From IMG/VR virus record IMGVR_UViG_3300025401_000012: 64,000 nt of DNA. One strand, 5' to 3'. Numbering within the stretch: the stretch's first letter is position 1; the number at the start of each line of letters is the position of its first letter. Of this stretch, positions 43,542 through 64,000 are shown piece after piece. The translations under genes and the position numbers were made by a program. Source of the stretch: a virus (lineage: Duplodnaviria; Caudoviricetes). The notes beneath the pieces are model-generated. The model saw nothing but the letters and a program-made list of their open reading frames with translations, had not been told where the DNA came from and made no database searches.

Positions 43542-43892
43542 ATGGATGAAAGAATAGAAAAAGCATTTGGTGTGGCTAACTTCATGGCCACACTATCAAA
43601 TCAAAAACGCATAATTTTAGAAGAATATAATCAACAATTGATACATTATATTAATGGTGCAACATTTCAAATTAGCACTGATCTTATAAGTTTTATTAAA
43701 ACATTAATCGATTTAGGAAATACAACAGATATTGTCCTAGTAGACAGTAATAATTTTCCTGTGCTAATAGAAGATTTAAATGTTTTTCTAAAAGACATAG
43801 TTGATGTGTACGTTTCAGCTACTAACACTTACGCTATACGTTTTAATGAAATTAAAACTAAGCGAAAAATTGCAGATATTGTTGATCTATGA
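43542..43892 (+). CDS. Hypothetical protein
   Basis: ATG at 43542 with a GGAG SD; translationally coupled to the next gene. Confidence 0.7.
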   Translation: MDERIEKAFGVANFMATLSNQKRIILEEYNQQLIHYINGATFQISTDLISFIKTLIDLGNTTDIVLVDSNNFPVLIEDLNVFLKDIVDVYVSATNTYAIRFNEIKTKRKIADIVDL

Positions 43893-44737: not shown

Positions 44738-45563
44738 AGGATTTCTTTTATTAGCACAAAATACTGACGATGTAGATTATATACGTCAAGCCTATGCATT
44801 AGCACTAAGTATTAAATCAACTCAGCGGATTACAACCAATGTTTCATTAGTTACCGATGACAATGTTCCTAAAGAATATATACATGCATTTGATAAAATT
44901 ATTCCTATACCGTTCGGGTCTGATACAACTTTATCTAAATACAGAACAGAAAATCGCTGGAAGGTATATTATGCAACTCCCTACGATGAAACTATTGTAC
45001 TAGATACCGATATGCTAGTGTTAGAAGACATTACTAGTTGGTGGAACTATTGTAGCAATTATGATATTAAATTTTGTAATAGTATTCAAAATTATAAAAT
45101 GGAAACTGTAGTTGATACAATACATCGTCGAGCATTTATAAGCAATAATCTTACCAGTCCATATTGTGCATTATATTATTTTAAAAAAAGCCAATACACT
45201 TATGAATTCTTTAAAGTATTAGAATTTGTTGTTAAAAATTGGGAATGGTGTTGGACTAAATTTGCCTCTGAAAATTATCAAAATTGGCTCAGCATGGATT
45301 TAGCTGTTGCTGTAACAATTGAAATAATGTGTGCTCAAGAACAAGTATTAGATAGTAATAATCCAATGAAATTTGTGCATATGAAAACACCATTGCAAAA
45401 TTGGAATGTGTCCACAGAAAGCTGGCAATCGAATGTCCTTAGTAATTTCAATGGAATACTTACTGTTGGTAATATTCGTCAACACAAAATATTTCACTAT
45501 ATAGAAAAAGATTTTTTATCTGACTACATAGTTGATAAATTGCAGGAGTTAAGTCGTGGCTAA
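44718..45563 (+). CDS. GT-A glycosyltransferase (GT8-like), paralog of the preceding gene
   Basis: GFLLLAQN..DVDY...A, ENRWKVYYATPYDETIVLDTDM (DxD), MDLA.AV, FVHMK. Confidence 0.7.
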   Translation: MGVRVSKGFLLLAQNTDDVDYIRQAYALALSIKSTQRITTNVSLVTDDNVPKEYIHAFDKIIPIPFGSDTTLSKYRTENRWKVYYATPYDETIVLDTDMLVLEDITSWWNYCSNYDIKFCNSIQNYKMETVVDTIHRRAFISNNLTSPYCALYYFKKSQYTYEFFKVLEFVVKNWEWCWTKFASENYQNWLSMDLAVAVTIEIMCAQEQVLDSNNPMKFVHMKTPLQNWNVSTESWQSNVLSNFNGILTVGNIRQHKIFHYIEKDFLSDYIVDKLQELSRG

Positions 45564-46170
45564 ACGTCAAAAAAAAATACAAAATAATTCTTTTCCTGAA
45601 CATAAATTTTATGTACACTATAATGATGATGGAACTATACTTTCTGTAAATAATTTTCGAAATGATGCATATAGTCTTGCAATTGAAATTACATTAGAAC
45701 AACATCATAGATTAGTTGCTGGATTAGAACAATTTACAGATTTTAGAGTTGGAACTATTATAGATGATAAAGGTAATCCGTCGATTGGACTTATACCGAC
45801 ACGTATTATAGAAGAACATAATTTTAAAAATCGATTATTAAAATGGATTGATAAAGATTGTCATGACTCAGATATAGATATTCATTGGGATGAGTTTAAT
45901 GATAGATGGATATTTGTAGCATCGGATGTATTTAGACAAAAATATTATGACAATAAATTGCCTATATCCGATTTAACATTGTTTTTAACATTGGGAAAAG
46001 ACCCTAACTTTTTAATTAAAACATTTAGTATAGATTTAAAAAAAATTACCTACGATAAAATTATAGTGCCATTTGAAACAAAATGGGAAAAAAATATAGA
46101 TGAAATTGCTATTACAACTAATCTAGCTAGTATTAATTACGCATTAAAAATTTGGAGAATACATGAGTAA
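45556..46170 (+). CDS. Hypothetical protein
   Basis: 204-aa ORF overlapping both neighbours in the operon. Confidence 0.7.
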   Translation: MAKRQKKIQNNSFPEHKFYVHYNDDGTILSVNNFRNDAYSLAIEITLEQHHRLVAGLEQFTDFRVGTIIDDKGNPSIGLIPTRIIEEHNFKNRLLKWIDKDCHDSDIDIHWDEFNDRWIFVASDVFRQKYYDNKLPISDLTLFLTLGKDPNFLIKTFSIDLKKITYDKIIVPFETKWEKNIDEIAITTNLASINYALKIWRIHE

Positions 46171-47068
46171 AATTAAGGTAATTGAACAGGACATTATATT
46201 TCTCAGTTATGATGAACCTAACGCCGAAAAAAATTATGCAGATCTATTAAGTAAAGTACCATGGGCAAAACGTGTGCATGGTGTTAAAGGCTCAGATGCA
46301 GCACATAAAGCCTGTGCAGCAAAATGCGAAACAGAATATTTTGTTACAGTTGATGGCGATAATATTATCGACCCTGCATTTTTAGAAGTTGAAATTGACT
46401 TAGATGAGCTTGGCTTGACTAAAGATTATGTTTTTAGTTGGTGCGGAAAAGTTCATGTTAATCATTTAATGTACGGTAATGGAGGCCTTAAAATGTGGAC
46501 GCCTGAGTTTGTTAATAACATGCGTACACATGAAAATTCAGATCCTAATGATACTAAGGGGCTTGTTGAATTTTGTTTTGATGAAAAATACTATCAGTTC
46601 AATGAAAATTATAGTGAAAGTTTTACCAACGCTAGTCCATTCCAAGCATGGCGTGCCGGCTTTAGAGAAGGTGTAAAGATGTCATTGGATCAAGGCGCTA
46701 AAGTAAAAGACCTTAAAAAAGTTTGGTGGCAAAATTACCATAGATTATTAGTATGGTGTAATATTGGAGCAGATGTTACAAATGGATTATGGAGTATATA
46801 CGGTGCCAGAGAAGGAGCTTATTTGACCAACTGTACTGATTGGGATTATAGCAATGTGCGCGATTTTGATTGGTTAACTGACCAGTGGGAGAACAAATAC
46901 AGCAAAGTTACAGATGACATGTTAAGACATGAAATATCTGGATTAGGAGAAACACTTAAACATGAATGTGGTTTGGAACTTTTTGATCCATGCAAAGACT
47001 CTAGTAGTTTTTTTAAAACTGTGTTTAACAATAGCCCTAGAATTGTAAGGAAAAAATATAATGTATGA
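46163..47068 (+). CDS. GT-A glycosyltransferase-like protein (GT2-like)
   Basis: IIFLSYDEP, VHGVKG..AAH.A.A....T.YF.TVDGDN (DxD), YGNGGLK.W, AWR.GFREGVK. Confidence 0.65.
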   Translation: MSKIKVIEQDIIFLSYDEPNAEKNYADLLSKVPWAKRVHGVKGSDAAHKACAAKCETEYFVTVDGDNIIDPAFLEVEIDLDELGLTKDYVFSWCGKVHVNHLMYGNGGLKMWTPEFVNNMRTHENSDPNDTKGLVEFCFDEKYYQFNENYSESFTNASPFQAWRAGFREGVKMSLDQGAKVKDLKKVWWQNYHRLLVWCNIGADVTNGLWSIYGAREGAYLTNCTDWDYSNVRDFDWLTDQWENKYSKVTDDMLRHEISGLGETLKHECGLELFDPCKDSSSFFKTVFNNSPRIVRKKYNV

Positions 47069-47774
47069 TATTGCATTTATAAGTTATAATGAATCACACG
47101 CTACTGATAGATATATTGAACTATTAAAAGCCTATCCTTATAATAAATTTTATAGAATTCAAAATATTAAAGGAATACATAATGCACATATTGAAGCTGC
47201 TAAAAAGGCAAACTCTAATATGTTTTATGTTGTTGATGCAGATGCAGAAATATTACCTAGTTTTAAATTTAATATTAAGTTAGATCCAAGCGAAGAAGAT
47301 ATTGTACATGTATGGCGTAGCATAAATCCTATCAATGGATTAGAATATGGGTACGGTGGAGTTAAATTATTACCCAAAAATTTAACCATTAATATGAATA
47401 TTTCTAATCCTGATATGACCACTAGTATCAGTCCTCGATTTAAAATTATAAATGAACTTAGTAATATAACTCGATTTAACACTGATCCATTAAGTACGTG
47501 GCGTAGTAGTTTTAGAGAGTGTGTTAAATTATCTAGTAAAATTATCGTCGGTCAGTTAGACGAAGAAACACAGCATAGATTAGATGTGTGGAGATTTAAT
47601 GGGAGTCAGGCGCCCTTTGCAGAATATTCAAGAGGTGGTGCAAGTGCAGGAGAATGGTACGGAACAACATATAAAGATGATCCAGTATCGCTTGCAAAAA
47701 TTAATGATTTTGATTGGCTAGAGGAACAATTTAATGCACACACTGAATTGTTCCCTCCAGAAACTTTTAAATAA
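47061..47774 (+). CDS. GT-A glycosyltransferase-like protein, paralog of the preceding gene
   Basis: IAFISYNE, IKGIHNAH..AA....MFYVVDADA (DxD), YGYGGVKL, WRSSFRECVKL. Confidence 0.65.
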   Translation: MYDIAFISYNESHATDRYIELLKAYPYNKFYRIQNIKGIHNAHIEAAKKANSNMFYVVDADAEILPSFKFNIKLDPSEEDIVHVWRSINPINGLEYGYGGVKLLPKNLTINMNISNPDMTTSISPRFKIINELSNITRFNTDPLSTWRSSFRECVKLSSKIIVGQLDEETQHRLDVWRFNGSQAPFAEYSRGGASAGEWYGTTYKDDPVSLAKINDFDWLEEQFNAHTELFPPETFK

Positions 47775-48447
47775 GATCTGTAGTCATCGGGAAGATTTTA
47801 GCAATAACTTTAGCACAAGCTATTGCAACTTCCTGATGCTCTTTTTGTGTACCATTTGAGCTACGTAATTCAATAAAGTGAATCCAACTACGTAACGTAC
47901 CATTCATATATAACCGACTTTCAATAAGTCCTTCTGGTAATACAGCACGTGCTTGTTCTTTGGCTATTCCTTTACTAATAGCCCATTCGTATGCATCACG
48001 ACTTTGTTTAATAACAAGCTCCTGCATACGCTCCCATTGATACGCTAAAAACCGATCTTCATCATTATTATGAGGATCTAGTTCTATGCTATTTTGTCTA
48101 TTTTTGGTATCTTGCTTGCGAGCATCTCTAAGTACAAAGTTGAGATCCTTTGTTGGGTCAGCATAACGTTGGCTGAACTCTTGAAAACTGAAGCTTCTAT
48201 GTCTAAGGATTTGTCTTGCGATATCTCTTGTAGTAGTAATCTCGATGCAGGCGGACACCATTTCGAGAGGACTCCAGTGTTGGTGCTTAATAAGATATCT
48301 AATGAGCTTTTCTGAGGTTTCTGTATTAAGCTGATTGCTCGGGTTACTGACTCTTGCACAGTAGGCAATGAGTTCTTGTGCATCCGAGATTCCCATGCTA
48401 GCAAATTCTTCAGTTGGCTGGCTGTAACTAAGCAATTTAACATTCAT
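47767..48447 (-). CDS. thyX: Flavin-dependent thymidylate synthase
   Basis: ThyX signature RHRSFSFQEFSQRY, HWSPLE, EQARAVLP, LRSW.HF..LR. Confidence 0.95.
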   Translation of the reverse strand: MNVKLLSYSQPTEEFASMGISDAQELIAYCARVSNPSNQLNTETSEKLIRYLIKHQHWSPLEMVSACIEITTTRDIARQILRHRSFSFQEFSQRYADPTKDLNFVLRDARKQDTKNRQNSIELDPHNNDEDRFLAYQWERMQELVIKQSRDAYEWAISKGIAKEQARAVLPEGLIESRLYMNGTLRSWIHFIELRSSNGTQKEHQEVAIACAKVIAKIFPMTTDLI

Positions 48448-49669: not shown

Positions 49670-49957
49670 TTATCTCGTCTGTAAAAGAGGACAGGCAATT
49701 GTGAAAAAACTTAATTCTTTTTCGCTTTCAAAGCCAATACGTGTATTATAAACAATTGTATTGGTATTATCTAGCGTAATTCCTTGTCCTACATAATACC
49801 TATTATTTAAATTCTTTTTGATCCAAGAGTCTATAGATTTGACTAAACTAGGATTGTATCTATCTATACTAGTATATTTGAAATGTGGACAGGCAAACTC
49901 AACCCTTCTTAAATCATAATAATTTAAAGGATTAGGTTTGCCATTTTTTAATGCCAT
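49670..49957 (-). CDS. Hypothetical protein
   Basis: Start overlaps the stop of the VWA gene (TAATG coupling). Confidence 0.7.
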   Translation of the reverse strand: MALKNGKPNPLNYYDLRRVEFACPHFKYTSIDRYNPSLVKSIDSWIKKNLNNRYYVGQGITLDNTNTIVYNTRIGFESEKELSFFTIACPLLQTR

Positions 49958-51180
49958 TATGCTGTTTCCTTAGCAAACTGATAATACGCATATTCTCCAA
50001 AAGGAGGAACAATGGTATCATTACCGTGAATAATGAATACTGTATCGCAGTAATTTTCATCACCCCAACTACCCCAAGGATACCCATCAGTGAACATGAT
50101 AAACTTTTTAGGTTGAATATCATTTTCTTTCATGTAATTCCAGTTGGCATCGAACTCAGTTCCACCACCGCCCATTGGCTCGTAGTAATCAAATTCGTCG
50201 ATATTATATCCGTCAAAGTCTGCTTCGTTATAAACTCGAGTATCAAAACACCATACTTTAATTTTAAAGTCTTTATACTCTTGCATAATACCTTTAATTT
50301 CTGTTAAGAAATCTTTTGCCTGTTCGTCGCCGATCGAACCTGACATATCGATTGCTACACAGATATCAATTGTTTCTTGAAATTGTGTTCCGGGTAGCAC
50401 CGCACTCATGTGCCAACCTTTACGATTAGGACGCATAAACGAATAATCGTTTTTAATAGTGCTTTGAATTTGTTGACGCAGGATTTCACGCCAATTCATT
50501 TTAGGTTCTGTCAATTCCTTAATCATACGCTGTACACTTGCAGGTGTGTTACCAGCACCTGCGGCTTGTGCAGCCTGCATTGTAGCTTCGCGGATCTCAT
50601 CACGAATTTCTTTTAATTGATCTTTAGTATATTTTGGCTGGCCTTCTTTACCGTTTTCACCCCAGTCAATATGTTCATCCAATAATTGACCTAATTGGTT
50701 AAGTTCTTCCTCATCCATTTCGTCAAAGATTTTGTCGTATACTTCTTCTGCACCCATGCCATAGTATTTAGGATCATGGAAAATTTTAATATCACCTACG
50801 TTGTGATCGCCAATACGATCACGAACTAATTGTCCGTTTACACAGTAGTCGGCAGCAATATTAAAAATACGTGCATTGCGATTTTCGCGACGAGCCATGT
50901 GATCAAACACATTATGTAGAATTTCATGTGCAATCACGAATTCGACTTGTTTAACTGTCAACGGTTCAAAAAATTTACGATTAAAAAAGATTGTACGACC
51001 ATCGGTTGCTGCAGTAGGCAACCAATCGTCTGCTTCTTGAATTTTTAAACGTGTTGCCATATTGCCAAAAAACGGATGTTTAAGCAATAAGCTAACTCGA
51101 GCTATAATAATTTTATCAACGATTGGGTCTAAACTAGACATCTTTGCTCCTAAGTTTTTACTATGTATATAGTATAACAC
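49957..51180 (-). CDS. Metallopeptidase-like/VWA protein (DUF2201 type)
   Basis: TAATDG, HEILH (HExxH), N.A.D, C-terminal MIDAS DMSGS, GGGT.F, FTDG. True start is probably the ATG at ~51141. Confidence 0.85.
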   Translation of the reverse strand: MLYYIHSKNLGAKMSSLDPIVDKIIIARVSLLLKHPFFGNMATRLKIQEADDWLPTAATDGRTIFFNRKFFEPLTVKQVEFVIAHEILHNVFDHMARRENRNARIFNIAADYCVNGQLVRDRIGDHNVGDIKIFHDPKYYGMGAEEVYDKIFDEMDEEELNQLGQLLDEHIDWGENGKEGQPKYTKDQLKEIRDEIREATMQAAQAAGAGNTPASVQRMIKELTEPKMNWREILRQQIQSTIKNDYSFMRPNRKGWHMSAVLPGTQFQETIDICVAIDMSGSIGDEQAKDFLTEIKGIMQEYKDFKIKVWCFDTRVYNEADFDGYNIDEFDYYEPMGGGGTEFDANWNYMKENDIQPKKFIMFTDGYPWGSWGDENYCDTVFIIHGNDTIVPPFGEYAYYQFAKETA

Positions 51181-51215: not shown

Positions 51216-52304
51216 TTACTTTTCGGTTGCTTGACTAATGTACTTACCAAACTTGGAGTGGAATTCGTCAAAACATTTGATTTCATCTGGATCTAATGGC
51301 AACTTGTAAGTTGACAATGCTAATTTAGTACCCATAATAACCAATTCTGTTTCAAAGTTATTCATAATAAACTCAAAGAAACAGTTAACTTGTTCGTTCC
51401 AGTTTTTAGCTTTCTTGTCACATGCATCTTTCAATTCGTAACACAGTGACACAGTTAATGAGTACATAGCACTAATTTCTTTAGAATCCATTTTCTTAAC
51501 TTTGCCATTCAAAATATCTGTAGGATTAGGCATTTTGCTAGCATGTTTACGGTGAGCCATAAAGCTAATTGCCAAACCTTCTCCTACAGAACCACTCACT
51601 AAGTCAGTAAGTGTTTCAGCATCGGTATCGTCATCGTGCAACAACTCGGAAACAAACGACCAAGAGCGTGGAGTGGCAAACGCACGTGAGCTAGATTTTG
51701 GATCAAAATCATACAGACTCTTTTTACTGAAGCTCAAAAATCCAACTACGTCTTTATGGATCTTATTTTCAACAGCCCATTCAAAATAGTCATCCCAATT
51801 AACTTGCATTTCTAAGTGTACAAAACGGTTGGCCAAAGGAGCAGGCATACGGAATGTAACACCTTTATCTGTTTCACGATTGCCAGCAGCAACTAGCACA
51901 ACATTATCTGGCAATTTATAAGTACCTACACGACGATTCAAAATCAATTGATAAGCAGCAGCTTGTACGCTAGGAGCCGCAGAGTTCATTTCGTCTAAAA
52001 ACAACACAATAGTTTTATGTTGTTTAGCCAATTCAGCACTAGGCAATTCGCTAGGAGGAGCCCAACGCATTGTTCCATCGTTAGAATCAAAATATGGAAT
52101 GCCTTTAATGTCAGTGGGTTCCCACAAGCTCAAACGAACATCGATTACATGAGCATCAAGCTCATCACCGAGTTGTTTAATGATATCCGATTTACCAATT
52201 CCTGGAGGACCCCATAGAAAAATTGGACGTTGATTTTTAAATGCTTTACGCAAGGATTTTTTAGCGCCGCTTGGACCAACGGTGCGACTGACGATTTCTG
52301 CCAT
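51216..52304 (-). CDS. MoxR-family AAA+ ATPase
   Basis: Walker A GPPGIGKS, Walker B LFLDE, AAGNR sensor, PLANRF, TPRSW. Confidence 0.9.
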   Translation of the reverse strand: MAEIVSRTVGPSGAKKSLRKAFKNQRPIFLWGPPGIGKSDIIKQLGDELDAHVIDVRLSLWEPTDIKGIPYFDSNDGTMRWAPPSELPSAELAKQHKTIVLFLDEMNSAAPSVQAAAYQLILNRRVGTYKLPDNVVLVAAGNRETDKGVTFRMPAPLANRFVHLEMQVNWDDYFEWAVENKIHKDVVGFLSFSKKSLYDFDPKSSSRAFATPRSWSFVSELLHDDDTDAETLTDLVSGSVGEGLAISFMAHRKHASKMPNPTDILNGKVKKMDSKEISAMYSLTVSLCYELKDACDKKAKNWNEQVNCFFEFIMNNFETELVIMGTKLALSTYKLPLDPDEIKCFDEFHSKFGKYISQATEK

Positions 52305-54396: not shown

Positions 54397-55383
54397 TTAT
54401 TCTTCCTTATATTTTGCTTGAAAAGGCTCTGCGTATTGCTGAATATTTTCAGCAATTTTCTTCATATCCCATGCGTTACAGAATTTAAGCATACGGATAC
54501 CAACTTGGCTAACATCTTTAGGTTTAGCATTAGCTTCGATTGTTTCTTTAATTTTAACCTTAATATCTTCGGGTTGCGCTGTTAAGTCGCATAATTGCAC
54601 GTTACGCTGATAGTCTTCTAAAACTCTGTGTTCGACTCCATTATGGTCAACCCATCTCTGAAGCATGAGATTGTTCCACGCAAATCCTTTGGCTTTACGA
54701 TCTTCGAACGCTTCTGTAAGACCAACTTTGTTTTTAGAACCTTTAGTACGCACACCCGGATACGCCGAGAAGACATTATCACTGGTATCACCACGCATGC
54801 ATTTTTCGAATAGCATCCATTCTGGGTCTTGCGCTGGCTTTGGCTCGCCTGTCTTTTTGTCTTTAACTGGTTTACCTTTTGCATCAAAGATACCTTCGTG
54901 TGTAATATGCAAGTCTCCTACACCGTTATATTGACTTACATTCGGACTGACTAATTGTGCAAAATCTCCGTCTGTTGAGATAATAACATGTTTTGCAGAC
55001 GGATGAGCTTGTATCCAACCTGCAATCAAATCATCAGCTTCTAAATTAGGATGTTGCATTACAGTAGCATTGGTCTTTTCTGTAATAAAATTCTTAAATT
55101 CGTCAAATGCTTCCCAGAACAATTTATCTTCATCTTGTTCTTTTTGTGTCATAGCCGCACGAGTTTCTTGTCTATTAGCTTTGTAAGGCTTGTAATAGTC
55201 CTTACGCCAGCTTCGACCTTCGAGACAGAATACTACATGACCGCCACCGAAATCTTGCCAAGCCTTTTTAATACTGTTAAGCGTGATATGAAACGCCATA
55301 CCAAGTTTAATATCGGCAGAGCCTTGCACTACATGCCGAGCACGAAAAAATGTATTAGCGGTATCAACAATTATATATGTCAT
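54397..55383 (-). CDS. rnh: T4-type RNase H / 5'-3' exonuclease (FEN-1 family)
   Basis: IIVD..N.FFR, SWRK.YY..YKANR, EADD, STDGDF.QL, GD.SDN. Confidence 0.92.
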   Translation of the reverse strand: MTYIIVDTANTFFRARHVVQGSADIKLGMAFHITLNSIKKAWQDFGGGHVVFCLEGRSWRKDYYKPYKANRQETRAAMTQKEQDEDKLFWEAFDEFKNFITEKTNATVMQHPNLEADDLIAGWIQAHPSAKHVIISTDGDFAQLVSPNVSQYNGVGDLHITHEGIFDAKGKPVKDKKTGEPKPAQDPEWMLFEKCMRGDTSDNVFSAYPGVRTKGSKNKVGLTEAFEDRKAKGFAWNNLMLQRWVDHNGVEHRVLEDYQRNVQLCDLTAQPEDIKVKIKETIEANAKPKDVSQVGIRMLKFCNAWDMKKIAENIQQYAEPFQAKYKEE

Positions 55384-55814: not shown

Positions 55815-55998
55815 TTTTCTTTTCCATACAATTACAATCTCTGCCTTGTCTACAATTGCCAGTACAAGAACTATTAATATTTTTAGTCCATCTTAATAAT
55901 AAACAAATTATTATTACCCAACCAATTATAAAACAAAACATAAAGAACATATTAAGTACCCCACTCATTTTTAAATAATGGCACTTGTAGTCTATCAC
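55807..55998 (-). CDS. Small membrane protein with C-terminal CxxxCxxGxxC
   Basis: One hydrophobic helix followed by CTGNCRQGRDCNC; true start is probably near 55948. Confidence 0.5.
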   Translation of the reverse strand: MIDYKCHYLKMSGVLNMFFMFCFIIGWVIIICLLLRWTKNINSSCTGNCRQGRDCNCMEKKND

Positions 55999-56803
55999 TA
56001 TAACGTAAACCTGCCTTCATAGCTAGTTCTGCTACACGTCGATTATTCAATGCATATACACTTTCTACTCCGCCTACTGGCATAAAATAAACAGCACCTT
56101 CAAATCCTAATGCACGATAAATGTCCATTACTTCTAGTGCTTCGTATGCATCATCTTCTGTGGCAATAACAAATTTTAAATAAGTCGGTCCTACTTCTTG
56201 ATACTCTAAAACAACATCTGGTTTAATAGCATCTTCACGTTTTTCTCCGCTACAGCTTAATTTTGGACTTACACTAAATGTTACAGCACGTGGATAATTA
56301 TTTCTAATAGACCATTCACTTAGATAGTCTTTAAATTCTTGTGTTAAATTTTGAGTACCATTAGTTTCAAATGTAATTTCTTTTAAATTACGCATGTCAG
56401 TATGATCGAGCAAGTCTGGATAGGCTTTCTGCCAACCTAACAAAGGTTCACCGCCTGTAATTACAAGATGCTCATCTAACCATGTTTTGTAAGGAAGAAT
56501 TTCCATAATACGATTTACAATAGCATCACTGGTAAGCATTGGACTGAGATCTTTAAAGCTAGGATGCCAACTAGCATAACTGTCACATCCTGTACTAACT
56601 AAAGGTAGTTCTTCGTACTTATTAAAGTGGAACGCCACTTGTGCAATATCGTCGGCTTCGGTACTAAGTTCGCCTCGAGGCATACCAAAGCCTGCACATT
56701 TAAAGTTACAACCAAATGTGCGCAAGAAAACAGACGGTACTCCCATGTATCGTCCTTCACCTTGAATACTATAAAATAATTCTGCTATTTTTAATTTACT
56801 CAT
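55952..56803 (-). CDS. queE: 7-carboxy-7-deazaguanine synthase (radical SAM)
   Basis: ELFYSIQGEG..G.PSVFLR..GCNF.C...CD, VITGGEP, ETNGT, SPKL. Confidence 0.92.
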   Translation of the reverse strand: MSKLKIAELFYSIQGEGRYMGVPSVFLRTFGCNFKCAGFGMPRGELSTEADDIAQVAFHFNKYEELPLVSTGCDSYASWHPSFKDLSPMLTSDAIVNRIMEILPYKTWLDEHLVITGGEPLLGWQKAYPDLLDHTDMRNLKEITFETNGTQNLTQEFKDYLSEWSIRNNYPRAVTFSVSPKLSCSGEKREDAIKPDVVLEYQEVGPTYLKFVIATEDDAYEALEVMDIYRALGFEGAVYFMPVGGVESVYALNNRRVAELAMKAGLRYSDRLQVPLFKNEWGT

Positions 56804-57050: not shown

Positions 57051-57217
57051 GGCTTGTCATTTCCTGCCCAATCTTGGACATCACAACTCCAACACATTAA
57101 ACGATTATAGGTTGGATACAACCAACCTAAATCAAACCAGTGCATTGGAAAACTAATCCAATGCCCTAAGTAGTATAACACTTCACTTAGTATTCTTGCA
57201 AATACTTTTTTAATCAT
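57026..57217 (-). CDS. Small Trp-rich hypothetical protein
   Basis: ATGA overlap with the folE stop. Confidence 0.6.
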   Translation of the reverse strand: MIKKVFARILSEVLYYLGHWISFPMHWFDLGWLYPTYNRLMCWSCDVQDWAGNDKPWKWEDKK

Positions 57218-57984
57218 TTTGAAGCATACTCTTGTTGCATTTTGATATTGTCAAAGAATTCTTTCTTTGTACCCATATCGTCTTTAAACGCACCTTTTAA
57301 TACTGTAGTCTGTGTTAAACTACTCTTAGCCATAATACCACGATTCTCACAGCAACCATGTGTCATTTGAATATAAACACCTAAGTCTGTTGCTCCGGTA
57401 GCTTTACCAATCTCGCGGGCAATGTCATTACAAAGTTCCTCCTGGAGAGTTCCACGTCGGGCACACCACTGTGCAATCCTGGTATACTTGCTAAGTCCGA
57501 TGAGTTTCTGCGCCGCAATAATACCAATATAAGCAACACCAACAACGGGTTGGTGATGATGGCTACACATACTGCGGAGCTCACTACGAACAACCAACAT
57601 ACCTTCGTAACGATCCACCGAATCATTTGGAAATGCTGTTGCGTCTGGTGCTGTGTCATATCTTCCTGCCATTATTTCATTAAAGTACATTTTAGCAAGA
57701 CGCTTTGCTGTACCTTTAGAGTTTGGATCTGTTTCTCGATCAATAAGCAACCGATCTAATACAGTTTCAAATGCCTCAGTTGCTTCTTCAATTAGTTTTG
57801 CTTTGTCTTCTTCGCTAACATAGTCGCTGATATTATCGCCAGCCCAAAAGCGTTTGCCTTCGCGTTTCATTTTAAATCGAAGATGATCTCCAAGATATGC
57901 TTCTTTATATTCTTTATTGTCATCGTCTTGCTGGTTAGCACCAGCTAACACATTTTTTAAATCTTCTGTTGTAAATGTAGTCAA
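57214..57984 (-). CDS. folE: GTP cyclohydrolase I
   Basis: RSMCSHHHQP..G.AYIG, IGLSKY.RI....ARR..LQE, HGC...RG. TTG start with a GGAG SD. Confidence 0.95.
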   Translation of the reverse strand: MTTFTTEDLKNVLAGANQQDDDNKEYKEAYLGDHLRFKMKREGKRFWAGDNISDYVSEEDKAKLIEEATEAFETVLDRLLIDRETDPNSKGTAKRLAKMYFNEIMAGRYDTAPDATAFPNDSVDRYEGMLVVRSELRSMCSHHHQPVVGVAYIGIIAAQKLIGLSKYTRIAQWCARRGTLQEELCNDIAREIGKATGATDLGVYIQMTHGCCENRGIMAKSSLTQTTVLKGAFKDDMGTKKEFFDNIKMQQEYASK

Positions 57985-58004
57985 TTGATTCTCCTATCTG
58001 TTAT

Positions 58005-58033
58005 ATTATATAGGTTTATTTAGGTTTATTCAA
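58005..58033 (-). promoter_or_regulatory. Sigma70-type promoter of folE with a nested late-type box
   Basis: TTGAAT (58028-58033), 17 bp, TATAAT (58005-58010). The spacer lies in a 10-bp direct repeat (TAGGTTTATT x2) that contains CTAAATA on -. Confidence 0.6.
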
Positions 58034-58234
58034 GATATTTTCTGCTCGAAGTTTGCGACAAGCTTCTTTAACTGGTATAGGATAATCTGGACTTATTTCT
58101 GCTATTGAACAATCATACTTAACAACCACATGTGGATGTGTATAATTGTAGTAAACGGCAAATACTACTAGTAGTATTCCTAGTAGTAATACACTATAAA
58201 AGTCTAAATTCTGTCTGAAAGTAGAATCTTGCAT
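58016..58234 (-). CDS. Small membrane protein
   Basis: One TM helix, then C-SIAEISPD.P..VKEACR. Confidence 0.6.
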   Translation of the reverse strand: MQDSTFRQNLDFYSVLLLGILLVVFAVYYNYTHPHVVVKYDCSIAEISPDYPIPVKEACRKLRAENILNKPK

Positions 58235-58407
58235 AATTCATAATCCTTTTTAGAATTAAAATAAAACGCCATATCTTCATATCTTGGATGATATGTATAA
58301 CGTTCTCCGGGTAAACCAAACACTTCTACTACATCAGCACAGGTGTCATTCCACCAATTATTATCTTGATTATGCCATGGTATTGTAATTTTAAAGTTTT
58401 CTTTCAT
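58204..58407 (-). CDS. Hypothetical protein
   Basis: Probable start MKENF at 58407. Confidence 0.6.
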   Translation of the reverse strand: MKENFKITIPWHNQDNNWWNDTCADVVEVFGLPGERYTYHPRYEDMAFYFNSKKDYELCKILLSDRI

Positions 58408-58549
58408 TACGTTTGGCTTCTGCAAGTTGCTCTTCTAAATATTCTTTGTAAAAATTTAAAGTATCTATTGCTTTGATATCGTTAATTTTTTTTAAATCCT
58501 CATTAACAGATGCAATTTTTTCTTCTAATTCTTTAACAGATAATGTCAT
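58391..58549 (-). CDS. 52-aa coiled-coil protein (below the ORF-track cutoff)
   Basis: Translated by hand: MTLSVKELEEKIASVNEDLKKINDIKAIDTLNFYKEYLEEQLAEAKRNERKL. ATGA overlap with the upstream stop; fills the gap exactly. Confidence 0.65.
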   Translation of the reverse strand: MTLSVKELEEKIASVNEDLKKINDIKAIDTLNFYKEYLEEQLAEAKRNERKL

Positions 58550-58776
58550 TTTCTAAATTTTCCTGCAACACTACTACCGAATAATATATTAAAGGCCAAC
58601 CAAGTTTGCCAAGTTAACGGAATATTTAAATACTGAGGGAACAGGGTATTCAAACTCCAAATTCCGATAATTGGACCAATAGCAAGAGCAATGATAATAA
58701 ATGCAATGCCAATTAATAATTTTATTAATGCTGAAGTCATAACCAAAAATTCTCCCAAGGATAAACTAACCAACAA
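58546..58776 (-). CDS. Small two-TM membrane protein
   Basis: Hydrophobic ORF, IWSLNTLFP...IP..W.TW.A; real start is probably at MTSAL. Confidence 0.65.
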   Translation of the reverse strand: MLVSLSLGEFLVMTSALIKLLIGIAFIIIALAIGPIIGIWSLNTLFPQYLNIPLTWQTWLAFNILFGSSVAGKFRK

Positions 58777-59231
58777 TCTTCATCTCTTTTGTCTACAGTC
58801 CAAACATAATAGTCTGGATCTTTAAATTCACTGCCTAAGTTATGAGTCAATACTGCAAATCGAACATTGTCGCCCCATACATGATCCCATATACTAGTAT
58901 TGCCGGGCAAGCAACTCGCTTGCCAGTCTTTTTTGATCCAGGCTACTGTAGAGCCTTGATCATTGATATCATCTACTACTAATATCTTAGTACCTTCGTA
59001 AGCATCCTCTGCCATGCTACAATTACTAACGCAATCACCACCGTCACGAAGGCTAACGTCTAGGCTTGACATTTTAATGCCAGTATATTGACTAAGCAAA
59101 TTAGCTGGTACAAGTCCACCACGGGTTATACCCACAATATAGTCAGGCTTCCAATCGTGTGCTGACATTTGGCGAGCAATATCCAATACCGCTCCTTCGA
59201 CTTGTTGCCAGGTATAATATACTTTCTTCAT
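58737..59231 (-). CDS. Purine phosphoribosyltransferase (Gpt-like, type I PRTase)
   Basis: IVGITRGGLVPA and the PRPP-binding loop ILVVDDINDQGST; C-terminal W.VYPWE. Confidence 0.88.
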   Translation of the reverse strand: MKKVYYTWQQVEGAVLDIARQMSAHDWKPDYIVGITRGGLVPANLLSQYTGIKMSSLDVSLRDGGDCVSNCSMAEDAYEGTKILVVDDINDQGSTVAWIKKDWQASCLPGNTSIWDHVWGDNVRFAVLTHNLGSEFKDPDYYVWTVDKRDEDCWLVYPWENFWL

Positions 59232-59506
59232 GCAGTTAACCCGTACGCCAGTGCCTGTAATTCTTCTGTAGTCATGAAATAATTATACGTAGCCGTATCA
59301 GTTATTTCACCATCCTTTAGAGTTTGTTGTTCTAAATTAATACTAAACAACCCTTTTGGGGCAAGTACTTCGTGCTTTTTCAACACAAGACGAAATCCTT
59401 CGTGTTCCTTGATAATCATTTCTTTATAAGTATCTTTAACTGATTCATGTAGTTCCATCGTCATCTCCTTTAATTGCTTCAAATGTTCTGTATTTGCCCA
59501 AAGCAT
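59228..59506 (-). CDS. Hypothetical protein
   Basis: Probable start MELHE; coupled to the PRTase gene. Confidence 0.6.
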   Translation of the reverse strand: MLWANTEHLKQLKEMTMELHESVKDTYKEMIIKEHEGFRLVLKKHEVLAPKGLFSINLEQQTLKDGEITDTATYNYFMTTEELQALAYGLTA

Positions 59507-59813
59507 TTATGTACTGATCGTACAATTCTTTGAGCTTTGGATGTTTATGTTCTAGTTTAACATCTCTTTCAGGGATTTGCAATACTGTTTCGATTGTCTT
59601 TAACCGTTCTTCTAAATCAACTCCGTTAATAACCATGTTACCTTTAACTTCTATGGTAGGCGGATTGGTTTGATTAATTATCATTACTTCACTGTTTGGA
59701 ACACTTGTACCAGTAGTCCAAACAGTATTTGTACCAGTTGATGTTAGGTAAGCACCGTTTGGTATAGCGGTCGTATTAGTTGTGGTTGGGAAGTAGGCCA
59801 TTCTTTCTATCAC
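59445..59813 (-). CDS. Hypothetical protein (Thr-rich N-terminus, helical C-terminus)
   Basis: ORF track; C-terminal HPKLKELYDQY resembles the end of 60236..60652. Confidence 0.65.
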   Translation of the reverse strand: MIERMAYFPTTTNTTAIPNGAYLTSTGTNTVWTTGTSVPNSEVMIINQTNPPTIEVKGNMVINGVDLEERLKTIETVLQIPERDVKLEHKHPKLKELYDQYINALGKYRTFEAIKGDDDGTT

Positions 59814-60270
59814 TTAGATATTTTTCAAAGTGGATCCATTTATTTTCAACAATAAATCCCCACTCACGTTGACGTTTGCCTACAAAGAACAATGTCCAAG
59901 GAGTAACGCCTTCTTTTAATTCAATACGATGGAAGGTATGTGTGTTACCAAAACGGAAACTACCTGGGCCACGCCACACTCTTACTTCGCAATTCTTTGT
60001 ACCGTCTTCGTTAAACTGTGCGATCCACTCATAGTAGCCACCAGCAAGAATAATAGTAAAGTAATTCCATGGATGATCATGAACGTCATCTGGATCTGAC
60101 TTTAAGAACTTGTGTAAAAATACATTATAAGGAAATGTTACACGTTCTTTAAAAAGAACATAGTAACGTTCCAAGTATGGCTCGTTTTCTGTACGATCCA
60201 TAATAATGCGTTTACGGTCATGGCGTTCAAGCCAATTAAGGAATTGGTCTTTGATCTTCTGGAGTATCAT
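59776..60270 (-). CDS. Cupin-fold metalloprotein
   Basis: H..HDHPW...T.IL.GGY.E and H.FHRIEL...WTLF..G...R.WGF cupin motifs. Confidence 0.75.
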   Translation of the reverse strand: MILQKIKDQFLNWLERHDRKRIIMDRTENEPYLERYYVLFKERVTFPYNVFLHKFLKSDPDDVHDHPWNYFTIILAGGYYEWIAQFNEDGTKNCEVRVWRGPGSFRFGNTHTFHRIELKEGVTPWTLFFVGKRQREWGFIVENKWIHFEKYLSDRKNGLLPNHN

Positions 60271-60652
60271 AGTGGTCTTTCACTAGTTTATATGTTGTCT
60301 TAAATTTTTCAAATGCTATTTTTAATCCGGGATATTCTTCACACATCTTTTGTACTTTATTCCAATCAGGAAATTGATCCTTCCATTCTTCAGGTAACTG
60401 AAAACTATATGCTTTTATGTCGTCTGTCGATAACGAACTAATGCTAATAGTACCGCTACTGGTAAGACCTGAACCGATATTATACCCGCCACCAGCTATT
60501 GTATTATAGTAATAATTAGAACTAGAAGTACCTATTGTTACATTATTGATACCGCCACTTGCTACTGATATATTAGCAAATGTGCTAGTATCGATAGTTA
60601 TTGTATCAGTTGAGGTTATTGAGTAACTCTGTGGCACTGAAGAAGTTGTCAT
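60236..60652 (-). CDS. Hypothetical protein (Ser/Thr/Gly-rich N-terminus)
   Basis: ORF track; C-terminal MCEEYPGLKIAFEKF. Confidence 0.65.
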   Translation of the reverse strand: MTTSSVPQSYSITSTDTITIDTSTFANISVASGGINNVTIGTSSSNYYYNTIAGGGYNIGSGLTSSGTISISSLSTDDIKAYSFQLPEEWKDQFPDWNKVQKMCEEYPGLKIAFEKFKTTYKLVKDHYDTPEDQRPIP

Positions 60653-61697
60653 GTAAGTCCTTTGATTGTTTTCGGATCACAGGAATTCTTGTTGCATAAT
60701 TATCCATATGTTCCATTATCTTGCGACACAAATCCGGCCTGTAAACAGTATAAGCATCAAAACTTTCAGTCCATTTACTTGGATATTTAAATGTGTCGTA
60801 ATACATTTCTGTATAACTTAAACGATCCGGAACCATAGGAATAGCATCAACTACTGCACCTTCATAGCAACTAATGCCTAGTGTTTCTTGTAAGTTAGCA
60901 CTAAACACCATCTTCGCTTCGCCTAACAAGTTATGATATTCATTTTTTGTTAGTTGTTGATCCTGACACACTACAAATTCATACTGCGGTAAGTGTGTAG
61001 CTAAGTCTCGAAAAATCTCAACTTGCTTCTCGGGTGCAATACGATGCGGAAAAAGAATTAGGTCACGCTTGGGCATGTTCTTATATACAGTTAATGTATC
61101 TTCCATATACTCCATCGGCCAACCTGTGCGTACATATTTGCCAGACTCTAGCATATCTGCCTTGTCCTCTTCTTCCCATGGATTTTCAACCATTCCATCA
61201 TTTAATAAATTATGATGAAACATGTCAATATGGAATTGAGTAGCAAAGTAATTGTGATCAAATGCCGCAAAGAAACTTTTTTCAGCATGTCTAACCCAAG
61301 GCTTATTGCCAACAAGACGTCCAAGAAAATCTTGAGGATCATAACTGCCAGCATGCCAAAGTCCGTGTGTAACTACTGGAATGTTCAGCAGTTCGCTCAT
61401 GTATTTTAAGTTTATGATACCAGGATGCCAAGCATCAGTAAACAAGAAATGATCGCCAGGCTGAACTGATCCGGAGCAAAATAAACGCCCCATTTGTTCC
61501 ACTTGACTAGACTTATAGATATTGGTACCACCAAAATTAAGGAAAGCACCAGGAGTAGTGGCTGTAGGAATATCCGTAGGGCCAGATAGAATTTGAACAT
61601 TGTGTCCTGCCTTTCGTAAGAGATTAGGTACATGAGTCTTCCATTGACCCGTGTACCTAGTTTCTACCGCTTCTAGATCAATTAGAAAAACGTTCAT
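60606..61697 (-). CDS. GT-B-fold glycosyltransferase-like protein in the deazaguanine cluster
   Basis: Two Rossmann-like halves; ILFPHRIAPEKQ and VFSA.LQETLGIS.YEG...AIP.VPDRLSY.E resemble the GT4-type E-x7-E nucleotide-sugar loop. Confidence 0.7.
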   Translation of the reverse strand: MNVFLIDLEAVETRYTGQWKTHVPNLLRKAGHNVQILSGPTDIPTATTPGAFLNFGGTNIYKSSQVEQMGRLFCSGSVQPGDHFLFTDAWHPGIINLKYMSELLNIPVVTHGLWHAGSYDPQDFLGRLVGNKPWVRHAEKSFFAAFDHNYFATQFHIDMFHHNLLNDGMVENPWEEEDKADMLESGKYVRTGWPMEYMEDTLTVYKNMPKRDLILFPHRIAPEKQVEIFRDLATHLPQYEFVVCQDQQLTKNEYHNLLGEAKMVFSANLQETLGISCYEGAVVDAIPMVPDRLSYTEMYYDTFKYPSKWTESFDAYTVYRPDLCRKIMEHMDNYATRIPVIRKQSKDLHDNFFSATELLNNLN

Positions 61698-61938
61698 TGT
61701 TATTATAACGTGGATTTTTACCTAAATAAGGTTTACGTTCGCCTGTGTAAGGCTTTTTAGGGCGACGTGTTTTATCAAAATTACGCCATTGCCAGCTTTC
61801 TCTGTTATAAAGATGAGCCTCATCGAACGGTGCCCCCTCCATCTTACACCAATCTAAAAATGCTTCGAGATCTTCAAAGATTTTAACGATATCGGGGCGG
61901 GCTTCGAAATAACTAAAGTCCTTGTAGTTTGTAGCCAT
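61678..61938 (-). CDS. Hypothetical protein
   Basis: 86-aa ORF with a basic C-terminus, between the QueD-like gene and the GT gene. Confidence 0.7.
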   Translation of the reverse strand: MATNYKDFSYFEARPDIVKIFEDLEAFLDWCKMEGAPFDEAHLYNRESWQWRNFDKTRRPKKPYTGERKPYLGKNPRYNNNERFSN

Positions 61939-61949
61939 TATAGCTTTCC

Positions 61950-62339
61950 TTAATATTTAATAAATGAACCATTTTCTCCATCTTCGGAGACCTCAATCCA
62001 AACCTCGCGGTTGGGATACTTTTGTGAAATCATGTCATATAAATCATCTGACATCATCTCGCAACTTTTATAATCTAGTTTTAGTATACTGTCTTTGTAT
62101 AAATTTTCCAACCAGCGTTTAAACTGGATGAATTCGACATCACGGTCGTTGTGGGTAACTGAAAGCCAAACGCGAAAATGGAATATATGACGATGAGGAG
62201 TAGCCAAAAACGATACATCATATTCATCTCCTGTTGCTAGGTTAGGATCTGTTGCGGCTGCTGGATAAGCGTGAATGCCTTCCTTTTGAAAAGTAACCCA
62301 GATCATTTTGTTTGGTCTAATATCTTGTTTAATGTTCAT
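61950..62339 (-). CDS. QueD-like T-fold protein with LxxxHRHxF motif (DpdL-type, predicted CDG decarboxylase)
   Basis: FLATPHRHIFHF, HNDRDVEFIQFK and SCEMM..DL. It lacks the CxxxHGH of canonical QueD. The DpdL assignment is from memory of the motif. Confidence 0.7.
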   Translation of the reverse strand: MNIKQDIRPNKMIWVTFQKEGIHAYPAAATDPNLATGDEYDVSFLATPHRHIFHFRVWLSVTHNDRDVEFIQFKRWLENLYKDSILKLDYKSCEMMSDDLYDMISQKYPNREVWIEVSEDGENGSFIKY

Positions 62340-62916
62340 TATAATTCTTTTTTAATTGTTCAAATGTGATATCTGTAATCTTATACATAAGAGTATATCT
62401 TATACCGTTATAAAATCGAGACATCGGCTTAACCATGTGTAATTGATTACTTGGAAATATTAATGTTTTATTATACGCTGGTATAATTGCAGTGTCAATG
62501 GTAATTGGTTTATTAAAATGATTTGGAATATGTTCGTCATTGCCTAAATCATTATAATAAAAATTATAAAGTATTGTTTCACCCCCCCAAGTAATGTTCC
62601 ATGTATCAGTGATAAAATTTATTACAGTAACACCGTCGTCTGTTTCGGTATCAAAATGAGCACCAGGTTCTAGTCCAAATGTTTGTGCATTAATATACGT
62701 GTTGCCACGTTTGCCGGCATACGAAAATTTATTACTAAATTGATCCCACATAGTTTCAATTAATGAATTTAATTGGGTATCTGGATTACTTTGATTCCAA
62801 TAATATGAACCTACAATATCTCTCCAAAAATATTTAAATGGGCTATCTTTAAGAATTTGATAAAATTTCTTATAAGTACTTGCCTCGTAAGTATTTTCTA
62901 AAATAAGATAACTCAT
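62329..62916 (-). CDS. 2OG-Fe(II) oxygenase
   Basis: HxD (AHFD), W...WGGET, P..N...IFPS..LH.V, RYTL. Confidence 0.85.
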   Translation of the reverse strand: MSYLILENTYEASTYKKFYQILKDSPFKYFWRDIVGSYYWNQSNPDTQLNSLIETMWDQFSNKFSYAGKRGNTYINAQTFGLEPGAHFDTETDDGVTVINFITDTWNITWGGETILYNFYYNDLGNDEHIPNHFNKPITIDTAIIPAYNKTLIFPSNQLHMVKPMSRFYNGIRYTLMYKITDITFEQLKKNYNEH

Positions 62917-63593
62917 AATTTTTTTAAACGTTGAATAGGATAATTATTAACTTGGAGTCTATCAATAAAAATTACTAAAGTCAATCTTTCATCAGTTGCA
63001 TCAAAATTATTTGCACCGTGAAACATTTGCGAGTCAAATGCAATAAGCCTGTTGAATTTATTTTTAATTACTATTGATTCTTTAAACTGCGCATTATGCT
63101 CCAACCTAAATTCTTCCATACTTTCTATAAGGTCGGTATTATCGAATGATTCTTTCTTTTTATCGGTATGCATAGCTACTGCAATTTCTGTTTTTTTCTC
63201 GTATAGTGTTGTTCCTGATGTAGGATCAGCATCATCATTTAAAAAAATAATAACTGTTATTAGCTCTGCATCAGTATGAATCCACCCGTCTTTGTATAGT
63301 TTATTAGTTTTTTGAAAACTACCATTAGCATGCCAAACAATATTAGTATTTGAATGATCGTAATATAAACTTAAAAATTTATTTACAATATAACCTAGCA
63401 TATCTTTATTAATTACATCTAATAATTCTGATCTTTCACCGGGCCACTGGTTTTGTGTATCCTTGGCATAAGATAAACTTAGTGCATAATTTTTAACCCA
63501 CAGTGGATCGTCAAAGAAATCGTCTAGTACAGTAATAGTAGGTAAAATATAATGCGAGGTCATACTTCTTTGTCTTGAGTATATTGATCCCAA
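62913..63593 (-). CDS. 2OG-Fe(II) oxygenase (prolyl-hydroxylase-like)
   Basis: V.DDFFDDP, WPG.RS, GWIHTD, GTTLY, N.FNRL..FD...FHG, RLT.V.F. Confidence 0.82.
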   Translation of the reverse strand: MGSIYSRQRSMTSHYILPTITVLDDFFDDPLWVKNYALSLSYAKDTQNQWPGERSELLDVINKDMLGYIVNKFLSLYYDHSNTNIVWHANGSFQKTNKLYKDGWIHTDAELITVIIFLNDDADPTSGTTLYEKKTEIAVAMHTDKKKESFDNTDLIESMEEFRLEHNAQFKESIVIKNKFNRLIAFDSQMFHGANNFDATDERLTLVIFIDRLQVNNYPIQRLKKL

Positions 63594-64000
63594 TACGTGT
63601 ACTTGTCCATCTTTAATAAATCATTTAACTGATGTGTCCATACACCGGGATTAGTAGCGCCCCAAGTTCTGTCATCTAATTTAACTGTTGTATTGTAGTT
63701 GAATTGATTAATATAAGGCAATTTAACACTGATCATGCTTACAAATTTTGGGTTTTCATTATAACCTGATTCAAGAACTCCTTCAGCATGAGCAACATCA
63801 AAATCTAAGGTAACCCAGTAACCTGCTTCTAAACATCCGTTAATAACAATATCCCAAGGTTTATATTCTGACACGCTAATGCTTTTAGGGTTAAAACTTT
63901 GACTAGTGCCAAAATATATATGTTTAATACGTTTTGTTTCGTCAATCATTGCTTGGCTATCGTTTGCAATACGTAGAATATCTTCAAGCGGAGGAGTACC
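63560..64000 (-). CDS. Hypothetical protein, C-terminal part (starts beyond the right edge)
   Basis: The frame is open to position 64000 (GTPPLEDILRIANDSQAMIDE...); HIYFG..QSF, VKLPY...NYN..VKLDD....ATNPGVW. Confidence 0.75.
   Translation of the reverse strand, partial: GTPPLEDILRIANDSQAMIDETKRIKHIYFGTSQSFNPKSISVSEYKPWDIVINGCLEAGYWVTLDFDVAHAEGVLESGYNENPKFVSMISVKLPYINQFNYNTTVKLDDRTWGATNPGVWTHQLNDLLKMDKYTYWDQYTQDKEV

Follow-up and report, generated by a model that had tools for sequence, protein, structure and literature searches.

Here, we describe a glycosyltransferase (GT) encoded by a tailed phage, IMG/VR virus record IMGVR_UViG_3300025401_000012 (Duplodnaviria; Caudoviricetes), of which one stretch of 64,000 nucleotides, referred to below as the window, was analysed. 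The protein is best explained, from its predicted structure and its sequence motifs, as an active, nucleoside-diphosphate (NDP)-sugar-dependent enzyme of the GT-B fold and as a dedicated, virus-only part of a DpdA/DpdL 7-deazaguanine DNA-modification module. That its product is a sugar-bearing deazaguanine destined for DNA we consider about evenly balanced. The proposal builds on what we observe, namely the fold with its catalytic motifs, a strict synteny and a distribution confined to viruses, and from these we infer a probable acceptor, donor, attachment site and timing. The gene lies as follows:

60606..61697, minus strand: GT-B (GT4-like, retaining-type) glycosyltransferase under study, 363 aa from an ATG start, recognised by fold and motifs.

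The GT is a real gene, since it has thousands of homologues: a word-indexed protein search yielded at least 8000 matches (best E 2e-253), including more than 120 clusters at 83-99% identity, and a family of 1107 clusters (E <= 1e-3) came out of an exhaustive HMMER search against representatives at 50% identity. With more than 8000 clusters at 90% identity among close relatives alone, the family is very abundant in freshwater viromes. Pfam (E <= 0.01) and PHROGs returned nothing for the window protein, and the homologues in Acidovorax phage ACP17 and Pseudomonas phage PA5oct reached only sub-threshold Pfam scores (21.1 and 19 bits against the gathering cut-off of 26.4 for PF00534, Glycos_transf_1). 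Judged by sequence, this is a divergent family of its own.

An AlphaFold2 (AF2) model built on 42 diverse homologues (predicted local distance difference test score (pLDDT) 95, predicted template-modelling score (pTM) 0.91) has two Rossmann-like domains, an interdomain cleft and a C-terminal helix going back to the N-terminal domain, the arrangement by which GT-B is recognised. Foldseek against PDB with this model returned GT-B enzymes exclusively (E 6e-10). VIA-align against 48,161 representative chains gave sucrose-phosphate synthase (SPS; 6kih) as the best match (Z 25.4, root-mean-square deviation 3.2, 316 aligned residues), with BshA (6n1x) at Z 24.5, PglA, GlgM, PimB' and LmbT at Z 22, and the pterin glucosyltransferase BGluT (5zer) at Z 20.8. 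The family profile, run against PDB sequences, matched GT4 enzymes alone (8xsg, E 4e-4), and in that profile search the EX7E motif of the C-terminal domain (E271-x7-E279) aligns with the motif of 8xsg and 2f9f. An Arg/Lys pair (FPHR219xxPEK224) is aligned to FIGRLDHNKNP of WlaC (6eji), a GRxxxxKG-like sequence for binding the NDP diphosphate. Across the 42 diverse members E279 is invariant, E271 is kept in at least 90%, and R219 and K224 are nearly invariant; the GT also carries H115-A-G117. Conserved aromatic and acidic positions in the N-domain (Y15, W19, D88, W90, H115, D120, D123, W134) are candidates for a base pocket. No membrane segment was found in the protein. By model and motifs it looks like a catalytically intact, soluble, retaining-type GT-B enzyme, and an earlier note, made from the DNA letters alone, which had named it a soluble GT-B-like enzyme, is borne out on the fold by the AF2 model, Foldseek and VIA-align alike.

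The gene neighbourhood was compared in 240 IMG/VR loci fetched via the GT family alignment and three members of other clades, with GTs 41-94% identical to the window protein; all locus counts are limited to loci whose flanks are long enough. A DpdA gene was found within 7 kb of the GT in every one of 181 loci; for DpdL, within 2 kb, the figure is 202 of 211, and FolE and QueE are present in 118 and 115 of 129 GT loci, respectively. The block recurs nearly unaltered as PolB, (a UDP-glucose/GDP-mannose-dehydrogenase-family protein, UGDH), a clamp-like protein h247, DpdA, (a Gfo/Idh/MocA oxidoreductase (Gfo) and a medium-chain (MDR) dehydrogenase), h176, DpdL, a small open reading frame (ORF), the GT, (a cupin), a phosphoribosyltransferase (PRTase), FolE, QueE, w144 and the exonuclease FEN. 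In the reverse direction, with DpdL of the GT-less phage RHph_I1_18 as query, the GT was present in 53 of 55 DpdL-centred loci having at least 3 kb on both sides. The earlier note had held that its proposal would fall if the gene occurred independently of deazaguanine genes; none was found outside the module in the 240 + 55 viral loci, two contigs of metagenome-assembled genomes (MAGs) and five cultured lineages, the exception being a distant paralogue in Xanthomonas phage PhiXhv-12. The family is virus-only: the ESM Atlas clusters nearest the GT are 95-98% viral, and 185,579 prokaryote species genomes gave two matches, both on MAG contigs with the same phage block.

Around the GT, the window encodes the following genes:

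63560..64000, minus strand: C-terminal part of an h176 family protein, cut by the window end, homologous to ACP17 ASD50402 and placed between DpdA and DpdL.
62913..63593, minus strand: 2-oxoglutarate (2OG)-Fe(II) oxygenase-like protein (DUF6445, phrog_1644), a sporadic insert.
62329..62916, minus strand: 2OG-Fe(II) oxygenase-like protein with a sub-threshold Pfam match, a sporadic insert outside the conserved module.
61950..62339, minus strand: DpdL-type QueD paralogue (T-fold), in which LATPHRHIF fits LxxxHRHxF, 33% identical (E 4e-8) to DpdL of Cellulophaga phage phiST.
61678..61938, minus strand: small ORF of 86 aa, placed after DpdL and before the GT, with whose start it shares 20 nt; kept in most related loci.
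60236..60652, minus strand: Ser/Thr/Gly-rich low-complexity protein of 138 aa, overlapping the 3' end of the GT, in some relatives only.
59776..60270, minus strand: cupin-like protein (phrog_4786) with an invariant HDHPW...H, in about half to most related loci; the hints of a cupin are weak.
58737..59231, minus strand: type-I phosphoribosyltransferase (PF00156, E 7.6e-13).
57214..57984, minus strand: GTP cyclohydrolase I, FolE (PF01227, E 1.6e-36).
55952..56803, minus strand: radical-SAM QueE-like 7-carboxy-7-deazaguanine (CDG) synthase, sub-threshold for PF04055 and 31.6% identical (E 2e-31) to the annotated PA5oct QueE.
54397..55383, minus strand: 5'-3' exonuclease / RNase H (FEN), a replication-module gene that closes the conserved block.
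47767-48447, minus strand: flavin-dependent thymidylate synthase ThyX (PF02511, E 5e-46).

According to Cui et al. (2023, PMC10516641), the LxxxHRHxF motif tells DpdL, which is proposed to decarboxylate CDG, apart from QueD. A canonical QueD (CxxxHGH) is absent from the window and is found in few related loci only; QueD activity presumably comes from the host or from elsewhere in the genome. No DpdA was found in the window by tblastn with phiST DpdA3, the 424-aa protein of ACP17 and the 540-aa protein of PA5oct, and in relatives the gene lies beyond the point where the window ends. The GT itself was considered as the missing DpdA3 and rejected, having no BLASTP similarity to phiST DpdA3 and a GT-B fold, not a TIM barrel. 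The run of QueD-like gene, GT, PRTase, folE and queE read by the earlier note holds. That note also set the GT far from a 'GT-A cassette' (43889-47774, plus strand): the distance of ~13 kb stands, and for the GT-A nature there is one sub-threshold Pfam GT2 match (47061-47774, E 0.007), with none for the other four ORFs.

Among 50,697 deposited phage genomes there is no close DNA relative of the window. By tblastn, GT homologues were found at 50% identity in Sinorhizobium phage Phosso, at 44% in eleven records of PA5oct-like Pseudomonas jumbo phages, at 34.5% in ACP17, and at 24-25% in BCSR5 of Burkholderia and the Xanthomonas phages BUDD and X1. The gene lies inside a deazaguanine cluster in every cultured carrier, where it adjoins DpdL, a DpdA-like gene, or both, in these orders:

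Phosso: DpdL-GT-...-FolE-...-QueE.
PA5oct: 540-aa protein, GT-DpdL-...-QueE.
ACP17: QueD-FolE-h176, 424-aa protein, GT-DpdL-QueE.
BUDD: FolE-...-GT, annotated 'queuine tRNA-ribosyltransferase', DpdL-QueE.
BCSR5: DpdL-...-GT, 446-aa protein, ...-QueE-...-FolE.

The sole exception is the distant paralogue of PhiXhv-12 and its relatives (27% identity over 66% of the length), which adjoins GlmS and a BshB-like deacetylase (L085:6189-6797) and has no deazaguanine genes near. A PIG-L/BshB-type de-N-acetylase also lies beside the GT homologue of BCSR5 (L086:5815-6522). In the BCSR5 and PhiXhv-12 lineages this suggests an N-acetylglucosamine donor, with subsequent deacetylation to glucosamine. Proteins of the 3'-phosphoadenosine-5'-phosphosulfate (PAPS)-reductase family (PP-loop) are found inside the clusters of BUDD (L087:5377-5871) and BCSR5 (L086:5155-5802), and may be QueC-like, performing an ATP-dependent step towards a different C7 substituent.

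The DpdA-like proteins of the relatives are 424-569 aa long, and are akin to one another by BLAST (ACP17 to BUDD, E 1e-54; PA5oct to the uncultured 569-aa form, E 2e-82; ACP17 to PA5oct, E 0.002). They have in common an invariant DSGGxQ, which we take to be the hallmark motif of tRNA-guanine transglycosylases (TGT). The BCSR5 protein has a weak Pfam TGT match (E 0.041), and the depositors of BUDD labelled theirs a queuine tRNA-ribosyltransferase; Pfam has no match for the BUDD protein, and the family profile found no TGT among PDB sequences. On this sequence evidence, the DpdA assignment of the 424-569 aa protein is likely. A common short motif (FNSLFEF / SLFDE; SLDDLFE / TLDELFE in ACP17) is found at, or close to, the end of both PolB and the DpdA-like protein; it is seen at L010:551-3217 and L010:5113-6822, at L003:788-3352 and L003:6718-7992, and in L002, and its form would fit a shared clamp-docking peptide.

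The module is a Dpd-type phage deazaguanine system extended by a dedicated GT-B enzyme, a new variant of that system. Like the DpdA/DpdL system of phiST (PMC10516641), it has FolE, QueE and a DpdL with LxxxHRHxF, lacks QueC, adjoins the DNA polymerase and, in all relatives of the window, has a DpdA-type transglycosylase nearby. Whereas phiST is without a GT-B enzyme and has plain 2'-deoxy-7-deazaguanosine (dDG), here the GT-B gene is in the module, often together with sugar-nucleotide-tailoring enzymes; the DpdA subtype differs as well (259 aa in phiST against 424-569 aa here), and there is no BLAST similarity to phiST DpdA3. The phiST comparison also bears on the possibility that the synthesis or insertion of 7-deazaguanine depends on the GT, which might serve DpdL or DpdA as a scaffold or through an activating step, and that the final base is sugar-free. 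ACP17 dpdL and dpdA alone gave no dDG in E. coli (PMC10516641), a failure that the GT may explain, and the GT pairs tightly with DpdL; however, phiST makes dDG without a GT gene, and the (near-)invariant EX7E and R/K residues and the sugar-nucleotide-tailoring genes alongside would both point to real sugar transfer, and we consider this role highly improbable.

In the pathway that we propose, FolE, a QueD activity (from the host or elsewhere in the genome) and QueE would produce 7-carboxy-7-deazaguanine, which DpdL, in its predicted role, would decarboxylate to 7-deazaguanine. For this decarboxylation the role of DpdL is a prediction only, and the measured quantity in the literature is dDG in phiST DNA (PMC10516641). 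The DpdA transglycosylase, beyond the window end in relatives, would exchange guanine in phage DNA for 7-deazaguanine, and the GT would add a sugar to it, most likely on DNA after insertion, as in the glucosylation of T4 and the arabinosylation of RB69 and HY126 DNA; action on the free base before insertion is less likely. Donors would differ by lineage, shaped by UGDH and Gfo/MDR in the window lineage, by an epimerase for PA5oct and by a PIG-L deacetylase for BCSR5, and the resulting sugar-bearing 7-deazaguanine would shield the DNA from host nucleases.

Genes for such donors accompany the GT. The window lineage has a short UGDH, a Gfo/Idh/MocA oxidoreductase and an MDR dehydrogenase (UGDH in 25 of 30 close relatives, the Gfo and MDR pair in about half), PA5oct a short NAD-epimerase/dehydratase, and BCSR5 its PIG-L-type de-N-acetylase. 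Tailoring genes that vary by lineage are the pattern expected for a diversifying glycan, and a fixed transferase with variable sugar chemistry is seen in glycodiverse DNA modifications (PMC13326640). The UGDH-family protein at L010:3219-3989 is short (256 aa), with Pfam covering the N-terminal NAD-binding and central domains only; similar short UGDH proteins were seen in 101 phage records, among them 15 from Campylobacter phages and others from Microbacterium phages, where the gene stands beside a glycosyltransferase.

We picture, with slightly less than even confidence, DNA with a glycosylated 7-deazaguanine that would be the first sugar-bearing purine analogue described in any genome. Because the GT pairs specifically with DpdL, which leaves C7 unsubstituted, the point of attachment may be the deazapurine ring itself or its exocyclic amine and not a side-chain hydroxyl. 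The sugar would vary by lineage, a uronic or oxidised form going with the UGDH, Gfo and MDR genes and glucosamine with PIG-L. Candidates for a step that makes a chemical handle on the base are the conserved h176 and the cupin. The h176 protein (~176 aa; e.g. L010:8809-9339) lies between DpdA and DpdL in 78 of the 84 loci whose flanks reach at least 7 kb in both directions, and also occurs in ACP17; its family has 22 invariant residues, nothing was found for it in Pfam or PDB sequences, and its AF2 model (pLDDT 81) has a best VIA-align Z of 6.8, which is noise level.

The acceptor might instead be a different DNA base, with the GT merely co-located: GT-B enzymes glycosylate 5-hydroxy- or 5-hydroxymethyl-pyrimidines, as in T4, RB69 and HY126, in T-even and RB69-like phages (PMC13326640), and PA5oct and Phosso have one ThyA-family gene each. 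These two genes, however, look like ordinary thymidylate synthases (258 and 419 bits, far above the family cut-off), and ACP17, BUDD and BCSR5 have no ThyA-family gene, which leaves these three without a ThyA-type hydroxy- or hydroxymethyl-pyrimidine as acceptor. The window, too, encodes no ThyA-type enzyme, with thymidine monophosphate made via ThyX, and the association of the GT is with DpdL specifically; the chance that another base is the target is, in our judgement, very slim indeed. The 'hydroxylated base' that the earlier note had allowed as an option is likewise weak, as the two 2OG oxygenases that adjoin DpdL in the window are found in 1 of the 84 related loci flanked by 7 kb or more on each side, and in a handful of loci in another comparison; these oxygenases are rare inserts and therefore not a general source of an acceptor hydroxyl. 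The DNA of PA5oct resists five restriction enzymes with G-containing sites (PMC12191111), which we count in favour of a deazaguanine target, along with the strict tie to DpdA and DpdL, the confinement of the family to viruses and the lack of dDG when ACP17 dpdL and dpdA were expressed alone in E. coli.

Several observations weigh against a sugar on deazaguanine in DNA. Unsubstituted 7-deazaguanine lacks a hydroxyl group, and an O-glycoside would need an extra step, or else an unusual linkage to N2, O6 or a ring carbon; we know of no precedent for C-glycosylation by retaining GT4 enzymes. DpdL modules without a GT exist in Rhizobium phage RHph_I1_18 (L088) and in L273 and L280, and phiST DNA has plain dDG by mass spectrometry (PMC10516641), for which reasons the GT is an add-on, not a requirement for dDG. 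Many of the loci counted above are from related jumbo phages, so the counts are not independent; there are at least four separate GT lineages by PolB identity (~50% to PA5oct and Phosso, ~27% to ACP17 and BUDD) and DpdA subtype. The GT also lacks the C-terminal clamp-type motif common to PolB and DpdA. In VIA-align, the HY126 DNA glycosyltransferase (9iqz) ranks 29 with Z 19.4, and SPS, BshA, GlgM, LmbT and BGluT all score higher. Finally, the GT family is acidic (isoelectric point 5.4-6.0 against 9.05 for T4 beta-glucosyltransferase, BGT), a weak negative hint only. In the three GT-less modules just named, the gene after DpdL encodes an unrelated protein of 274-289 aa, which in RHph_I1_18 bears the annotation macro-domain 'Appr-1-p processing' and is without a Pfam match.

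The comparison with the T4 alpha- and beta-glucosyltransferases (AGT and BGT) that the earlier note had drawn showed no clear specific likeness: AGT (1y6f) ranks 36 in VIA-align with Z 18.2, under many small-molecule GT4 enzymes, the GT has no Pfam AGT or BGT match, and in a BFVD structure search with the GT the first 'DNA alpha-GT' stands at rank 47. Nor, given the acidic family, is there a sign of the basic DNA-binding protein that its suggested DNA-binding groove would call for. What T4 AGT/BGT and the HY126/RB69 arabinosyltransferases have in common with the GT is the GT-B fold, a phage origin, a gene by that of a non-canonical-base enzyme and near the polymerase, and the presumed logic of a modified base masked with a sugar; T4 b-gt directly adjoins the dCMP hydroxymethylase gene 42 near polymerase gene 43, the same layout logic as at the GT locus. 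They differ in that the fold likeness is generic, the GT is acidic, not basic, and the acceptor there is a hydroxylated pyrimidine, whereas the presumed acceptor of the GT is a deazapurine without a known hydroxyl. The GT is not assigned to the T4-type or RB69-type families despite the similar presumed sugar masking.

The acidic enzyme, with no evident DNA-binding features, might instead act on a protein, for example of the replisome or virion, or on a glycan or lipid of the host envelope, for example to mask a receptor. Virion proteins and host polysaccharides are substrates of many phage GT4 enzymes, and a Ser/Thr/Gly-rich ORF lies directly downstream in the window. That ORF is absent from most relatives, however, and the GT neither contains a membrane segment nor associates with structural or lysis genes; its fixed place between DpdA and FolE/QueE across very different hosts is hard to square with a surface target, which we regard as quite unlikely.

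The top structural neighbours of the GT are small-molecule GT4 enzymes (BshA, BGluT, LmbT). Cyanobacterial BGluT glucosylates tetrahydrobiopterin, and BshA and MshA make thiol cofactors. A GT that glycosylates a soluble small molecule never entering DNA, such as an intermediate or by-product of a pterin or deazapurine pathway, would suit these neighbours, with which the GT has the EX7E and R/K donor motifs in common, and would suit its acidity; FolE with a PTPS/QueD-like T-fold enzyme is also the entry to pterin pathways, and BCSR5 and PhiXhv-12 have a PIG-L/BshB-like deacetylase next to the homologue, a pairing also seen in the synthesis of bacillithiol and mycothiol, where BshB and MshB serve. 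But sequence identity to BshA/MshA and BGluT is 10-13%, BGluT is no nearer than twenty other GT4 enzymes, genes of thiol-cofactor or pterin-glycoside pathways are lacking, and the GT stands strictly in the replisome-linked DpdA/DpdL/QueE block, its context being exclusively phage deazaguanine and replisome genes. QueE, moreover, commits the pathway to deazapurines, and a pterin glycoside has no evident role in a lytic phage replication module. We think a small-molecule acceptor unlikely.

For the preferred reading, a sugar placed on a deazaguanine in DNA, there is a eukaryotic precedent. The tRNA queuosine glycosyltransferases (QTMAN/GTDC1, a GT4-type enzyme) are GT-B enzymes that add a sugar to a 7-deazaguanine derivative already in nucleic acid, the acceptor being the cyclopentenediol hydroxyl of queuosine in tRNA. 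They differ from the GT in that a queuosine-type side chain could not be made by the genes seen at its locus, and Pfam scans of the window GT and the ACP17 and PA5oct homologues gave no DUF3524 match, so that no sequence relationship to QTMAN/GTDC1 was detected. In phage DNA, the 7-deazaguanine bases known are preQ0, preQ1, ADG, G+, CDG, 7-deazaguanine (DG), methyl-preQ1 and formyl-preQ1. To our knowledge these carry no sugar, and DNA glycosylation is confined to hydroxylated pyrimidines. The earlier note likewise knew of no characterised sugar-bearing deazaguanine in phage DNA, and among the papers that our literature search covered, none was found to describe a glycosylated deazaguanine in DNA. 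If the proposal is true, a sugar on a deazapurine would join both strategies in a new class of DNA hypermodification, with consequences for restriction, for CRISPR and glycosylase-based defence, for the sequencing of such DNA and for enzyme tools; phages that can be cultured carry the GT, among them PA5oct, a candidate for therapy.

Positions 58000-64000 of the window are nearly complete (word share 0.5-0.96) in 22 of 24 listed freshwater metagenome runs from 2017, and the phage lineage is accordingly recurrent in fresh water; among these holders of the stretch (all contigs) there is no RNA run. Elsewhere in the window, a single ORF of 5374 aa (15550-31674, plus strand) stands among large plus-strand ORFs, and its product is presumably a giant protein of structural or fibre type. 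A MoxR-type AAA ATPase (51216-52304, minus strand) and the adjoining DUF2201 metallopeptidase/VWA-like protein (49957-51180, minus strand) form a MoxR-VWA pair.

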